From NCBI GenBank assembly GCA_964016885.1, contig OZ024754.1, positions 33,294,001-33,358,000 on the forward strand: a stretch of DNA of 64,000 nt. Direction: 5' to 3'. Source of the DNA: Eledone cirrhosa (lineage: Eukaryota). Of this stretch, positions 4,262-54,700 are shown one piece after another (position 1 is the first letter of the stretch; every line of letters starts with the position of its first letter). A program made the position numbers and the translations under genes. The notes below the pieces were generated by a model. The model was not told the origin of the DNA, did not search any database, and saw nothing but the letters and a program-made list of their open reading frames with translations.

Positions 4262-4480
4262 TATACAATGATATTTAATAAATGGAAACTAATTATAAAA
4301 CCATATTTATTCTATAAATATAGTTTCCATTTATAAATATAATTTCCATTTATTAAATATCATTGAATATTATACTCCAGAAAACTTGTTGAGTGCTCTG
4401 AATCAGTTATAAACATTTATATTTGTTGAATTACCAACAAATTGAATATCCCTTTTGCTTTATTTTTTATCATTTATTTT
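4262..4480. mobile_element. Fold-back fragment of HHR family A (both arms truncated before the ribozyme)
   Basis: caatgatatttaataaatggaaact ... tttccatttattaaatatcattg inverted arms, then tail aatattatactccagaaaacttgttgagtgctc shared with 21680-21780 and 34555-34630. Confidence 0.7.
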
Positions 4481-4911
4481 GTTTTGACCTGTTTAGCTTG
4501 ATTTGGTTTTTGGCTTGGGTGGTTAATGCTTTCTTGATCACCTTTTCAGTTTTGTATGGCTTCTTAACACATTGTTTAGCTCTGGTTTTTAACTATTGAG
4601 CACTTTGCCAGTATCATTTCTGATTTTTGCGTTTCGCTTCGCTTTTCCTGCCCGCCGAAATGCGATTCTCGCTGAATCTTTATTTGTATATATATATATA
4701 TATATATATATATATATACAAATAAAGATTCAGCGAGAATCGCAAATATATATAGCAGTAAATAAGATGATAGCCATTCAATGGCTATCATCGAAATATA
4801 TATAGCAGTAAATAAAGGATTATGAGTTCATGCAATTGACTTATGTTTCGTCAATATATATATATATATATATATATATATATATATATATATATATATA
4901 TATATATACAC

Positions 4912-5238
4912 ACACAGAAACAAAATGGCGTAGGATAGAACAAAGGAGAGGCACAGAAACAAAGAAAGGAATCCCAGTCACTGAAGAGGTCACAGAGTGT
5001 GTGACGAAAGAACTATGACAATATATAAACAACTATCTGGTTGTGGAACCAACCAACCAACCAGAAATTTATAAATTTATTATAAATTTATTATAAATTT
5101 ATTATAATAAATTGAAGTGAAAGCAACTGGTGCGTGTGTTTCGTATTGGCAACATGACCCTCCCAAAGTGTAACAATATCGGTTTCAACACACGATTTCA
5201 GATAAAGAATCTTGCTAAACAAATTCAGAAACGAAATA
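4912..5238 (+). mobile_element. HHR-bearing PLE pseudo-LTR-like element, family B
   Basis: Flanked by (TA)n. Other copies at 17171-17439, 40914-41082, 53222-53522 (-) and a 19-nt end fragment at 26267-26285. Confidence 0.75.
4977..5019 (+). ncRNA. Hammerhead ribozyme (family B)
   Basis: gtca-CTGAAGA-g-gtcaca...tgtgac-GAAA-gaac-TA-tgac; stem I gtca/tgac. Confidence 0.75.
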
Positions 5239-5499
5239 TATATATATATATATATATATATATATATATATATATATATAAACACATATACAAACGCATA
5301 CACACAAACATGAACACAAACTCACACATATATTCATTTACTTATTTACTTGTACTAGCCGACAGGCTGTGGCCATGCTGGGTCACTACCATTACCACAA
5401 CAACACTTTCTCTAGCCAACCTTCCTTTGTAGGTCATTGATGTAAAAGTGAGTTTGTCGCTGGCGTCCTTATTTGTGCTTCACTTGGTGCTGTGAGTTC

Positions 5500-6300
5500 A
5501 TCTGAAATCTTGGTTAGCAGAATGTCAGGATGTTTCTTGAAATCAACTACATCCAGACCTGGTAGATCACTCAGGGTACTTTTGGCAAGTTATTAAAGAA
5601 CTGTAGCCTTTTGAACCCCAGGTTCTTATTCTAGATGTAAAGGATGGGAATTTTGGAACCACACTGTGGCGCACTGTTCGTGGGTTGGTCAAGCTCTTAA
5701 TGCCAAAGTTTAGTGCTAATCCTTCCAGGAGCTTCCATATGTATATCACTCTATATATATCTCCTGTATTTGTTCCAGGGAATTGAGTTTCAGTTTTTTC
5801 AGCCTCTCCCTCATCATCTTCATTAAGACAATCTTCATGGTGCAGCTCTATTGAATTGCTACAAGTCTGCGATTACTTAGTCACTTTGGGTCGATCACAG
5901 CTGTGAGCTATAGTCCGGTCGGCTGAAGACAAATGTCCTTCAGAGGATCAACCCGCTCTTTTGTCCTAAAAGTCCTCAGAATCCAACGACCCAGTCGTTT
6001 GAACATTGACTCCATTTTAATGATGTGTGCATGAAAGATGAATCATTGCTCATGTCAATACCCAGGTCCCGCATTGATTTCTACTCGGGGATTTCGATTC
6101 CTCTTGGTCCGATGTAGCTTTGTTATAGTGGTCTTGTGTTTGCAGGTTGATAGCGAAGGGCTTGAAAATTACTTACATTAAACTGTATATTATTGTCCTC
6201 AGTCCATTTATATATAGTGTTTAAATCATCAAATATCCACGAGGCCCTTCTTTGTTCTCCTGGTCTCCGACTGATGTCCACCCTGATCCTCGCTATAAAG
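5500..6300 (-). pseudogene. Decayed CR1-like LINE ORF2, post-RT region
   Basis: Minus-strand peptides DDLNTIYKWTEDNNIQFNV, MRDLGIDMSND, LGRWILRTFRTK and IYIWKLLEGL with frameshifts; second short copy at 10100-10244 (+). Confidence 0.75.
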
Positions 6301-6797
6301 ATAACATACTACGGGCTGTTTATATAACCTCCTTTTTAGATCCTCCTAGATATGATGCAGCCATCAGTAAAGGTCTATTACACTACACCACACAAGAAAA
6401 TATAGATAATTATAAATCGTTCTCTACAAAAACTGGTGACGAACCGACTTCGTTTTGCCCATTAACGAAACACCATTAGTTTCACCCCAAGACTACAGAG
6501 AAAAAGAATTTAATGGTGATGTGTTATGTCCTTGGGCAAGACACTTTATTTCACGTTGCTCTTTCTGCCAAGAGTTGCAACCGATAGATAGTATCATTAA
6601 TGGAAAGGTTAATAGAAAGACTAATAGAAACATTATTTCCTTGGTCCGATTTGATGAGTTCCACCCCACTCGGTAAGTGAATGAGGTCTGGGATCTTGTG
6701 GGTCGTCTAAAATATAAATATAGCTCACCCCTGTACAGGTTTAATTGGCCTCCTATAATGTTACATCTTATAGAAGTGTTTGTGAGTGTGTTTTATT

Positions 6798-7016
6798 AAT
6801 GATTTCTAGTTTAGGCACACAGCCAGCAATTTTGGAGGAGGGGAAAGTTGATTAAATCGACCCCAGTGCGTGACTGGTACTTTATTTTATTGACCCTATA
6901 AAGATGAAATGCAAAGTTAACCTCGACGGAATTTGAACTCAGATCACAAAGGGCCGTAACTCTATGCTGCAAAGCGTGGCGTCCGCCCCTCTACCGATAC
7001 TGCCAATCCACCGCCC
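6798..7016 (-). mobile_element. Major tRNA-derived SINE, long variant
   Basis: GGGCGGTGGATTGGCAGTATCGG head, GAGTTCAAATYCC B-box, TTTCATC..GGGGTCGATAAAATAAAGTACCAG-type core, (ATT) tail. Confidence 0.85.
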
Positions 7017-51502: not shown

Positions 51503-53434
51503 ATATATATATATATATATATATATATATATATATATATATATGAAGAATTTTCACATCAGGTCATTTTTTTTTTCTTTTTAAAGATGCGTGGTGAACG
51601 CAATTCGGATTATGTGATAGGAACCTAATTGCGATGTCTTGTTATTGATTGTCGAGGAATTCAGTAGAGGATTTAAAAAGATATCTTGTTGCAACTAACT
51701 TCTCTGGAAAAACTTTTACAATGTCAACAAATTTGGAAGATTGATTTCTTTGCAAAGTGAATATATGTACAACAGGGAGAATAGTTTCACATCAATCGAT
51801 TGGCAGAGCTTGTAGAAATTGTTTGGTAATGGCAAGGATCTGAGGTGAGGGGAGGTGGGAGATGTTAATTTGTAGATATATGTACATTGACACACATACA
51901 AACACACAAACACACACACATACTCACTCACTCACACACATTTGCAAACACGCAGATTTATGTATAAATGAATATATATAAATGAATTATGTATAAATGA
52001 ATATATATACATATACTGTATATATATATATATATATATGTGTGTGCGTGTATATTATGTGTGTGTATTCCGTGGATACATATATTCATATTTTATAAAT
52101 GTATATATAGATATATACATGTATCTATGTATATATATGCATGTATATATATGTATATATATATATACATATATATATATATATATATATATATATATAT
52201 ATATATATATATATATATATATATATATATATATATATATATATATAGTATAGTATAGTATAGTATAGTATATATATATATATACATACATATATATACA
52301 TACATATATATATATATATATATATATATATATATATATATATATATATATATATATATATACATACATATAAATATACATACATTCATATATATATATA
52401 TATATATATATATATAAAACATGAGAAGAATGAATACTGCGTGGTTGCACATGGGTTACATAAGATAAAAATAGTCCTTCATCAGTGATTTTCCAACCTT
52501 CATTGGTATTTCATATATATATATATATATATATTTATATATATGAAATATAAATATATATATATATATATATATATATATATATATATATATATGAAAT
52601 ATATATATATGAAATATAAATATATATATATATAAATATATATATATATATATATATATATATATATATATATATATATATATATATATATATATATATA
52701 TATATATATATATATGTATATATATACGCATGCATGTCTGTCTGTATGTATGTATAAATTATGTAGTGATAGTTTATAGCCAATTGCTTGATCTTTGGTG
52801 AGGCTAAATATCTATCAACGGATGTTCAGTCTGTAGAACTAAGTGATGTGGAGCAAGAAATGGCGGGGAGACGATATTACACAGATATTCTACATTACTA
52901 CACGTCACAATCATGTTTTCACACACACACACACACACACACCCGTCTACACACACCTATATATATATAAGTATATGTATATATATATATATATATATAT
53001 ATATATATATATATATATATATGAAAATATAAATACATATATATAAATATAAATATATATTCATATGTGTATATATAAATATAAATATATATACATAAGT
53101 ATATATATAAATATAAATATACATACATAAGTAAATATATAAATATATATATATATATATATAAGTATATATATAAATATAAATATATATACATTAGTAT
53201 ATATATAAATATATATATATATTTCGTTTCTGAATTTGTTTAGCAAGATTCTTTATCTGAAAACGTGTGTTGAAACCGATATTGTTATGCTTTGGGAGGG
53301 TCATGTTGCCAATAGGAAACACACGCACCAATTGCTTTTATTCCAATTTATTATAAATTAAATTTATAAATTTAAGAATTTATAAATTTCCGGTTGGTTG
53401 GTTGGTTCCACTACCAGACGGTTGTTCATATATT

Positions 53435-53477
53435 GTCAAAGTTATTTCGTCACACATTCTGTGACCTCTTCAGTGAC
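53435..53477 (-). ncRNA. Hammerhead ribozyme (family B)
   Basis: RC: gtca-CTGAAGA-g-gtcacagaatgtgtgac-GAAA-taac-TT-tgac. Confidence 0.75.
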
Positions 53478-53819
53478 TGAGGATCTTTTCTTTGTTTTTG
53501 TGCCTCTCCTTTGTTCTGTCCTATACATAAGTATATATATAAATATATATATATATAAATATATATATATATACATAAGTATATATATAAATATATATAT
53601 ATATCCATAAGTATATATATAAATATATATATATACGTAAGTATATATATAAATATATATATATATACATAAGTATACATATAAATATATATAATCATAA
53701 AAATATGATTCCAGTTCCTCAGTGAAATAACAACCCAACCAGGAACTGGGCATATCAGAGTATTGACAAAATTATACACCTCAACAACATATGTACTTGT
53801 CTATACCATACTAATTCAA

Positions 53820-53874
53820 ACTGCCTGAAGAGGTCACAGCTAAAGATGGCTGCCACCGAAATATATATAGCAGT
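53820..53874 (+). ncRNA. Hammerhead ribozyme (separate family; 3' halves also at 4740-4820)
   Basis: actgc-CTGAAGA-ggtcacagc..gctgccacc-GAAA-tatata-TA-gcagt. Confidence 0.8.
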
Positions 53875-54032
53875 AATAAACGAAGCTAAATTTTAAACAT
53901 TTGACTTTTATTTTACTTTATTTTATATATATATATATATAGTTATATATATACATATATATATATATATATATATATATATATATATATATATATATAT
54001 ATATATATATATATATATATATATATATATAT

Positions 54033-54700
54033 ATATCTTTAAGTCGTTTGGAAGCCTCGACAATGCAAATGGGTAAATCTCCGGGTAACAAGGTCCCGTG
54101 GTGGAGAGACAGATGTAAGTGGGTGTACGTTGAGATGCGTGGTGTGTATAAGATGTGTGAGATGTGTAGAATGAAGGGAAGAGTATAAAGGATAGAATAA
54201 AAATAACAACACAAGAGAGAGTTACCTTGGGAAAGACGTAAAAGTCCCTATATATTTCGGATTCACATCCATCAACTGGGGTTTTTTCCGGGGTGGGGGA
54301 AAAGGTTGTCTGTCGGACAGGTCTGATATTCAAAACAACAAACAGCGAAGGACGCATTCCGGACCTGTCCGACAGACAACCTTTTCCTCCACCCCGGAAA
54401 AAACCCCGGTTGATGGATGTGAATCCGAAATATATAGGGACTATTAAATCTCTCCCAAGGTAACTCTCCTTTGTGTTGTTATTTTTATTCTATCCTTTAT
54501 ACTCTTCCCTTCATTCTACACATCTCACACATCTTATACACACCACGCATCTCAACGTACACCCACTTACATCTGTCTCTCCACCACCGGACCTTGTTAC
54601 CCGGAGATTTACCCATTTGCATTGTCGAGGCTTCCAAACGACTTAAAGATATTTACTTATTGTTCCACAATGCGTCAAGCAAACTTCAATACTCTCTTAC
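54033..54700. mobile_element. Fold-back element family H: ~290-bp inverted arms plus 50-nt tail, in (TA)n
   Basis: Arms 54033-54325 and 54362-54651. Confidence 0.85.

Follow-up and report, generated by a model that had tools for sequence, protein, structure and literature searches.

In a stretch of 64,000 nucleotides from Eledone cirrhosa (GenBank assembly GCA_964016885.1, contig OZ024754.1, positions 33,294,001 to 33,358,000 of the forward strand; hereafter the window, numbered from its first letter), many short repeats occur as fold-backs—that is, as two inverted copies of one family joined head-to-head. These fold-backs are almost certainly pseudo-long-terminal-repeat (pLTR) remnants of Penelope-like elements (PLEs), and their families are mostly of the Hydra clade. 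Every family stops at two positions, site 1 and site 2, and in all likelihood these ends are set, in most families, by a small bulged hairpin that is present twice in the full-length relatives. We further consider it probable that the fold-backs were formed when both ends of the target were primed on a single RNA (twin priming); that this priming is programmed, the duplicated hairpin docking a dimer of the reverse transcriptase (RT) on one transcript and constituting a portable cDNA-start signal for any RNA, is a more tentative proposal, which may well prove wrong. The kind of element, the tail, the inverted pLTRs, and the existence of two RT start sites are already known; what is apparently new is the cis-signal, the twice-repeated hairpin that accounts for both ends.

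The fold-backs were delimited by a masked self-BLAST of the window plus alignments within each family, 32% of the window (GC content 37%) being masked as low complexity. We scored 15 fold-backs in nine families (two each in A, B, and G, four in F, and one each in H, I, J, M, and O), leaving unscored three inverted pairs from the self-BLAST: 21433–21485, with 15-bp arms within another family; 44045–44385, from a family resembling short interspersed nuclear elements (SINEs); and K (49747–50171), whose other end is lost. All 15 are head-to-head; one of the two arms ends at site 1, whereas its partner bears a tail, which is 48–102 nt long in the 11 fold-backs measured (A 92, B 56, F 77–79, G 70, H 86, I 76, J 48, and M 102 nt). 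A previous interpretation, the sequence-only reading, had proposed two fixed ends per family, and the alignments bear this out, since its end motifs lie where it had placed them and all copies of a family stop at two positions; its extension of one arm in G, H, I, and J is likewise present in the fold-backs that it presumably meant. The short end of A lies at 4264(−), 28978–84, and 34805–11, and the tail start at 4366 has the exact motif once, with a variant in the copy at 34520; the three A ends named earlier (4262, 28984, and 34811) hold as positions, but 28984 belongs to a solo copy and not to a fold-back. For B, the short end is at 17171(−) and 41075–83 and the long end at 5226–36, 17429–39, 40914(−), and 53222(−), to which we add a tail-only piece at 26267(−), overlooked before. 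Most fold-back ends adjoin (TA)n tracts, insertion into which characterizes the Hydra clade; the A arm at 4314–4460 and the O arm continue into other sequence and not into (TA)n. The description of the arms as short versus long could not be maintained: the tail-less arm is the longer one in the B fold-back at 17171 and the A fold-back at 34811, and therefore the rule concerns the position of the end and not the length of the arm.

In eight of the nine families the tail-less end stands 2–12 nt before a hairpin, which was located by scan in five of them and by eye in three (H, J, and O, unmatched by the scan); for the F fold-back at 45152 the distance was taken from the family alignment. The lower stem of the window hairpins is closed by G:C or A:T. 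A descriptor allowing an A:T outer pair, relaxed after the window had been seen and hence no blind test, gave 22 matches against 6.35 in 20 shuffles (maximum 12), and 14 of those matches coincide with the beginning of a tail, in families A, F, G, I, L, M, and N. At site 1, exact TA microhomology of at least 2 nt is present in seven of the nine families (background 12%, p = 1e-5). The families, then, are not unrelated, as had been supposed: eight of the nine have one common tail-start hairpin, which is also found in Hydra-clade elements. Nor does the distance from the hammerhead-ribozyme cleavage site to the ends, suggested earlier as the ruler, remain constant; with cleavage sites read by eye it ranges from ~20 nt (F and G) to ~160 nt (B), as against the few nucleotides that separate the ends from the hairpin.

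Full-length relatives of the Hydra clade carry the same structure. The best 80 of 374 matches in metagenomes gave 78 loci, from which the 47 with an N-terminal match were taken and three with less than 100 nt upstream were dropped, leaving 44. An RCTY...RAGY hairpin lies at most 170 nt from the ATG in 41 of these and is present two or more times in 26, mostly near −100 and −42 relative to the ATG, the background being 0.09 per shuffled untranslated region (UTR) and 0.09 per window of open reading frame (ORF). The design reads RCUC, an upper stem, a 2-nt bulge, and GAGY-AC. Among 93 distinct loops, whose statistics ignore kinship among the loci, the number of upper pairs averages 2.03 when the 3' bulge is taken as 2 nt, versus 0.58 in shuffles (best shuffle 0.88) and 0.03–0.31 for other bulge sizes, so that the 2-nt 3' bulge alone forms an upper stem; the bulge letters are TT in 57 loops, TC in 20, and TA in 7, and the first upper pair is C:G in 53 and T:A in 30, with later pairs of several types. 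A covariance model was dropped when MAFFT failed to align the 5' strands of 74 hairpins. By eye, the hairpin is also carried by the published Hydra consensus sequences (the set of PMC8557442), among which Hydra-1_Ajap begins at hairpin 1 and has both.

The order in the full-length relatives is hammerhead, site 1, hairpin 1, site 2, hairpin 2, and ATG. Comparison of read-through with terminal copies gave 47 breakpoints, 26 of which are away from hairpins, 25 of these being discounted by eye, either because sister families diverge there or because they repeat the joint of locus L011; of the 22 putative element ends, 21 lie at −4 to +6 relative to a hairpin (hairpin 1 in 8 cases and hairpin 2 in 13), most with TA- or AT-rich flanks, and that of L011, at +37, is the sole exception. 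Some full-length insertions have their 5' ends at or inside a hairpin (L059, L015, L040, and L002), and unit-length copies exist that run from site 1 to site 1 (L059) or from site 2 to site 2 (L015); such a copy of unit length may result if the RT halts on reaching another hairpin that is already occupied. From the position of the tail-less ends just before the window hairpin, together with the two-hairpin order in the relatives, we infer that the tail is the first hairpin unit.

In the mechanism that we propose, a (TA)n tract would be cut on both strands by the enzyme, a dimer of RT and endonuclease (EN) acting on one uncleaved RNA, each hairpin docking one RT and each target end being primed at one hairpin of that RNA, where the (TA)n primer would often pair with 2–4 nt of UA or AUAU just before the hairpin. 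Both cDNAs would proceed toward the 5' end of the RNA, the downstream one displacing the upstream one, and the head-to-head joining of their 3' ends would often take place where the sequence forms a hairpin of its own, for example a hammerhead stem; the joint lies just 5' of the hammerhead core in G and probably in stem II in F. The joint of the B fold-back at 17171 shows a 5-nt inverted microhomology. In PAc, a PLE of Anolis, the protein cuts and extends both strands, two internal start sites bound the tail, and a dimer is predicted (PMC11167929; our statements on this and the other papers cited by accession refer to portions of their texts).

That most fold-backs are near-symmetric, with sister arms, would also be expected if priming occurred at site 2 alone and the cDNA then copied itself back, with the endonuclease cutting before hairpin 1, which would in that event be a DNA signal. 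Other work lends this explanation some credit: self-priming has been inferred from palindromic joints (PMC3846280), the tail has been suggested to be an outcome of EN-mediated resolution (PMC8557442), and the EN of D. virilis cleaves in a tail-dependent manner, as cited in PMC11167929. Copy-back from site 2, however, cannot yield a tail-less arm that reaches 150–160 nt further upstream than the tail arm, as it does in the B 17171 and A 34811 fold-backs, and a copy-back that started from site 1 would leave the tail unaccounted for; moreover, solo copies stop at site 1 with no fold-back at all (28984, 33756, and 27100, plus eight full-length loci), and both sites are RT starts in vitro (PMC11167929), for all of which we regard copy-back as unlikely. 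The tail-less arm extends further upstream in B 17171, A 34811, B 41082, and A 4262, which are the four assignable cases in the window; a rule that it always does so was rejected, as the tail-bearing arm extends further in the loci L019, L085, and L089.

Twin priming on one RNA is argued for by the one-of-each pairing of the ends together with the sisterhood of the arms. Under an independent 50:50 choice, 15 of 15 fold-backs with one end of each kind has a probability of 0.5^15 = 3e-5, and nine of nine by family one of 0.002. Further loci were obtained elsewhere, eleven from genome bins with animal DNA and 20 as hairpin matches from another animal, G001, in whose contigs all six hairpin-bearing fold-backs are one-of-each, the inverted arm ending 1–7 nt before hairpin 1 with a TA-rich flank and the partner having the tail; the search in G001 started from hairpins, so that tail-less pairs would be missed. 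L019 is also one-of-each, L046 and K have tail-only inverted arms, and L086, a short and possibly collapsed contig, appears to have a tail on both arms. Overall, one-of-each pairing is found in 22 of 23 cases (p = 3e-6), or 15 of 16 by family (p = 3e-4). As to sisterhood, the tail-less arm in G matches its own partner at 51/56 and 63/66 positions and other copies at 46/55 and 51/64, in M the corresponding values are 130/134 and 95/131, and in three of the four F copies the match to the partner arm is no worse than that to the other copies. Use of two RNAs, one per target end, with the pairing due to an asymmetric enzyme dimer or to a bias, would be compatible with either arm being the longer, with the 1–2 positions at which the B arms differ, and with the possible double tail of L086; this alternative we nonetheless hold to be quite unlikely in view of the pairing figures just given and of the private variants common to both arms of a locus in G, M, and F. 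Several bins of the GTDB contain animal contigs with Hydra-clade retroelements (L079–L089), as a contamination.

A different origin would be the copying of whole palindromes from non-autonomous masters, akin to miniature inverted-repeat transposable elements (MITEs) or fold-back DNA elements, with the ends simply inherited. The four F copies, whose ends and centre agree within a few bases, and the two G copies, with a common centre, fit such a descent; but the arm centres vary between copies in A and B, the same ends are used by solo and tail-only copies, hammerheads and Hydra hairpins are present, and the outer ends, which differ by the tail, are not mutual inverted repeats. An assignment to MITEs or fold-back DNA transposons was accordingly rejected, and we deem descent from masters very improbable as a general account, although for F alone it may still hold.

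Fold-back chimeras are a known class of artefact, and the sequence-only reading had itself pointed to an assembly or chimera artefact as what would overturn it. The independent material speaks otherwise. Four runs of organism A, which contains only 0.23 of the query words and was taken as a relative and not as the same genome, were compared with family B: sequence that leaves the alignment at 5179, B site 1, passes into (TA)n in 2323 reads of run X6, 1942 reads of run X7, and 62 contigs of run X1, the end at 5179 not being among those listed for run X5, and the depth of the reads anchored at 5110 falls by 34–44% at 5179. Strand-change joints at different places number three among the 15 listed of 90 joints. 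Read ends also pile up at 5069, 5110, and 5225, where AATT occurs, and these we take to be restriction cuts of a restriction-site-associated DNA (RAD) library and not element ends, the cut at 5225 masking B site 2 in these reads. With the same end and joints thus present in raw reads of organism A, the same anatomy on contigs of another animal, and arms that differ by up to 9% within one fold-back, assembly or library chimeras are largely refuted, and we give them next to no credence.

Several observations weigh against our interpretation of hairpin-set ends and twin priming. The RCUC/GAGY hairpin was not found by the window scan in family B, which has two fixed ends all the same; H, J, and O owe their hairpins to assignment by eye, and the descriptor owes its A:T pair to a relaxation made after the fact; in folding energy, only 1 of 14 stretches had a z below −2 relative to shuffles; and G:U and A:C pairs in the hairpins number 9 versus 7, which does not tell RNA from single-stranded DNA. 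Exact microhomology is lacking in A and G, and in PAc the RT start site has no homology with the DNA that is cut, nor does it differ between strands (PMC11167929). The end of L011, the apparent double tail of L086, and the inverted arm of K, which overshoots site 2 by about 25–30 nt, depart from the rule, and the other 25 breakpoints away from hairpins were discounted by eye. The sisterhood of the arms is not seen in A or B, where the overlaps are short, and elsewhere it could come from gene conversion; a single palindromic master may be the ancestor of all four F copies.

The assignment to PLEs is based on several features. An inverted 5'-truncated copy with a one-sided tail, as in EN-bearing PLEs, is present in 15 of 15 fold-backs, and earlier papers describe inverted pLTRs that lack their 5' part and bear a one-sided tail (PMC8557442, PMC3846280). 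The proposal of Penelope-type insertions with two defined priming points is upheld—hammerheads, inverted pLTRs, and one-sided tail included—and was already published in outline. Families A, M, B, and G have a hammerhead core of type I upstream of site 1 in the sense orientation, and F retains, in a reading by eye, only the 3' half of one; none was found in H and J, and an Rfam search of the window at gathering thresholds gave no match. The clade is defined by an RWK motif and by DKT in place of DKG (PMC8557442), and the ORF remnant at 48941–49712(−), a broken N-terminal part with stops and a frameshift that resembles Octopus vulgaris proteins at 71–72%, reads RWR and DKT; of two further traits of the clade, a CxCX5C linker and a C-terminal EN devoid of CCHH, the linker is visible in the alignment of its relatives, the corresponding part being missing from the remnant. 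Pfam, run on six proteins, returned one sub-threshold GIY-YIG match only. The short families, which carry no ORF, are tied to the Hydra clade only via the hairpin and the hammerhead. Since no RCUC/GAGY hairpin was found in family B, we treat it as a PLE without a clade assignment. The B motif had no match in metagenomes, nor had the Hydra relatives any in viral contigs. Two fold-backs of other loci (L084:6373–6574 and L090:719–1335) have one arm extended and no matching hairpin, as in B, and other PLE clades may use another signal.

Family by family, A comprises the fold-back at 4262–4460(+), with the tail-less inverted arm at 4262–4314, a tail arm, the hairpin at 4374–4394, and a tail running into family L (arm 4460–4686(+), hairpin 4579–4601, tail stopping at (TA)n); the fold-back at 34520–34811, with a tail arm of ~27 nt overlap, a tail-less arm of ~180 nt, and the hairpin at 34605–34586(−); a solo long copy at 21526–21785(+) (hammerhead core 21608, hairpin 21703–21723); and solo short copies at 27100–27285(−) (core 27190), 28805–28984(+), and 33756–33913(−) (core 33851). 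The B fold-backs lie at 17171–17439 (tail-less arm ~190 nt, tail arm ~85 nt) and 40914–41082, and its solo long copies at 4925–5237(+) (core 4981, site 1 ~5178, site 2 ~5237, and no RCUC/GAGY hairpin) and 53222–53523(−) (core 53473). F consists of a solo long copy at 17815–17945(+) (hairpin 17873–17896) and of four scored fold-backs, the family's copies of that kind being at 26434–26628 (hairpin 26506–26483(−)), 44954–45152 (45030–45007(−)), 51308–51503 (51430–51453), and 62435–62645 (62510–62487(−)). The two G fold-backs are at 17624–17814, whose centre immediately precedes the hammerhead core on the 5' side (hairpin 17679–17661(−)), and 19845–20050 (hairpin 19903–19885(−)). M has a fold-back at 26677–27056, with a hammerhead core in each arm (26760(−), 26866(+)) and a degenerate hairpin, a solo short copy at 16853–17070(+) (core 16965), and a solo long copy at 50531–50845(+) (core 50643, hairpin ~50759–50781 by eye). 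Single fold-backs represent H (40257–40812; a long-loop hairpin beginning, by eye, 2 nt after the tail-less end), I (41100–41362; an exact Hydra-type hairpin at 41292–41312), J (54038–54701; arms of ~285 nt and a weak hairpin that, by eye, follows the tail-less end at 2 nt), and O (18067–18260(+), absent from the earlier interpretation; a degenerate hairpin at ~18225, recognized by eye, follows 4 nt after its tail-less end). The tails of I and J have a 12-nt motif in common shortly before their long ends (41345–41362 and 54685–54701). A long copy of N at 20664–20860(+) shows a compensatory pair in the upper stem relative to the copy at 27416(−). K (49742–50172) is the 5' UTR of the element whose ORF remnant was described above, and its inverted arm, spanning hairpin 1 through hairpin 2, breaks the end rule.

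A tail-only insertion at 40826–40890(+) runs from a degenerate hairpin to (TA)n, and is one of the tail-only pieces of B, H, L, and one unnamed family (26267–26290(−), 20448–20500, 40826–40890, 51217–51295(−), 4720–4745(−), and 12161–12215), which mostly sit between (TA)n tracts. A hammerhead family P, at 53825–53920 and 4745–4850, ends at (TA)n ~55 nt past the predicted cleavage site, no partner tail having been identified for these two copies, and isolated hammerhead cores with no family link stand beside (TA)n tracts at 4137 and 41388. The repeat family at 20908–21520, 24018–24330, and 29310–29901(−), whose fixed end coincides with a start motif of Kozak type and whose flanks are (TA)n or (TATG)n, is possibly another PLE clade. 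The commonest family of the window, which we take to be SINE-like, occupies 6794–7022, 9574–9956, 14104–14412, 16143–16557, 30255–30438, 38111–38401, 39205–39482, 43977–44427, 47213–47323, and 49224–49317, with one inverted pair (43977–44427) and one copy interrupting the Hydra ORF. Tandem arrays extend over 8026–9495, 12979–14019 (period ~104 nt, 98% identity), 55400–57500, and 63584–64000, and the hammerhead scan of the window found no core in any of the four.

Compared with known systems, the window elements agree with the Hydra clade of PMC8557442—an Octopus bimaculoides family included—in their (TA)n targets, in motifs of the DKT and RWK types, in hammerheads of canonical form, and in an inverted 5'-truncated copy with the tail on one end, but the tails described there are 30–40 nt and those of the window 50–100 nt. 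With PAc, a Poseidon element, they would have in common two internal RT start sites bounding the tail, the cutting and extension of both strands, the use of uncleaved RNA, and a start at a stem-loop, PAc differing in that it starts inside the ORF at one AC-rich stem-loop, with no homology to the target (PMC11167929). The putative Hydra-type starts, in contrast, are situated in the 5' UTR, one ahead of each copy of the bulged hairpin, often with TA microhomology. Twin priming is reportedly also a feature of L1, where, in the account attributed to Ostertag and Kazazian in 2001, both target ends are primed on one RNA with a head-to-head inversion as the result. In L1 the second priming site arises from a fortuitous match, and there is hardly any overlap between the arms, whereas the fold-backs of the window use two fixed sites and in most cases have arms that overlap over their full length. 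The Penelope elements of Adineta vaga also have head-to-head inverted pLTRs, joint palindromes, and an optional 31-bp tail, which were attributed to an antisense template on which self-priming takes place; the part of the account consulted shows no hairpin that would define the ends (PMC3846280). Non-LTR retrozymes (PMC7229834; bioRxiv 10.64898/2026.07.22.740005) are likewise short, non-coding PLE derivatives bearing type I hammerheads, but form head-to-tail tandem repeats, whereas in the self-comparison the window copies are head-to-head or solo, and we therefore rejected that identification.

In the literature searched we encountered no prior description of the duplicated hairpin or of PLE twin priming, although subscription papers, Repbase notes, or image-only supplements may hold one. 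The main text of PMC8557442 contains neither "hairpin" nor "stem-loop", and in the portion consulted no rule was seen that links the ends to a cis-element or pairs both ends; "tail", "hairpin", and "stem" are absent from the corresponding part of the retrozyme preprint (bioRxiv 10.64898/2026.07.22.740005), as are "hairpin" and "tail" from that of PMC7229834.

How the tail and the inverted ends of PLEs are formed was an open question in PMC8557442 and has been partly answered by PMC11167929. A twice-repeated, conserved hairpin that predicts both ends, in octopus-like and other marine animal genomes, makes the mechanism accessible to mutate-and-rescue experiments, and provides a tag by which repeats devoid of an ORF can be assigned to a clade and their boundaries fixed. 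Furthermore, the RTs of PLEs are the sister group of telomerase (PMC8557442), and therefore an RNA structure that positions the start of the copy bears on the evolution of template recognition.

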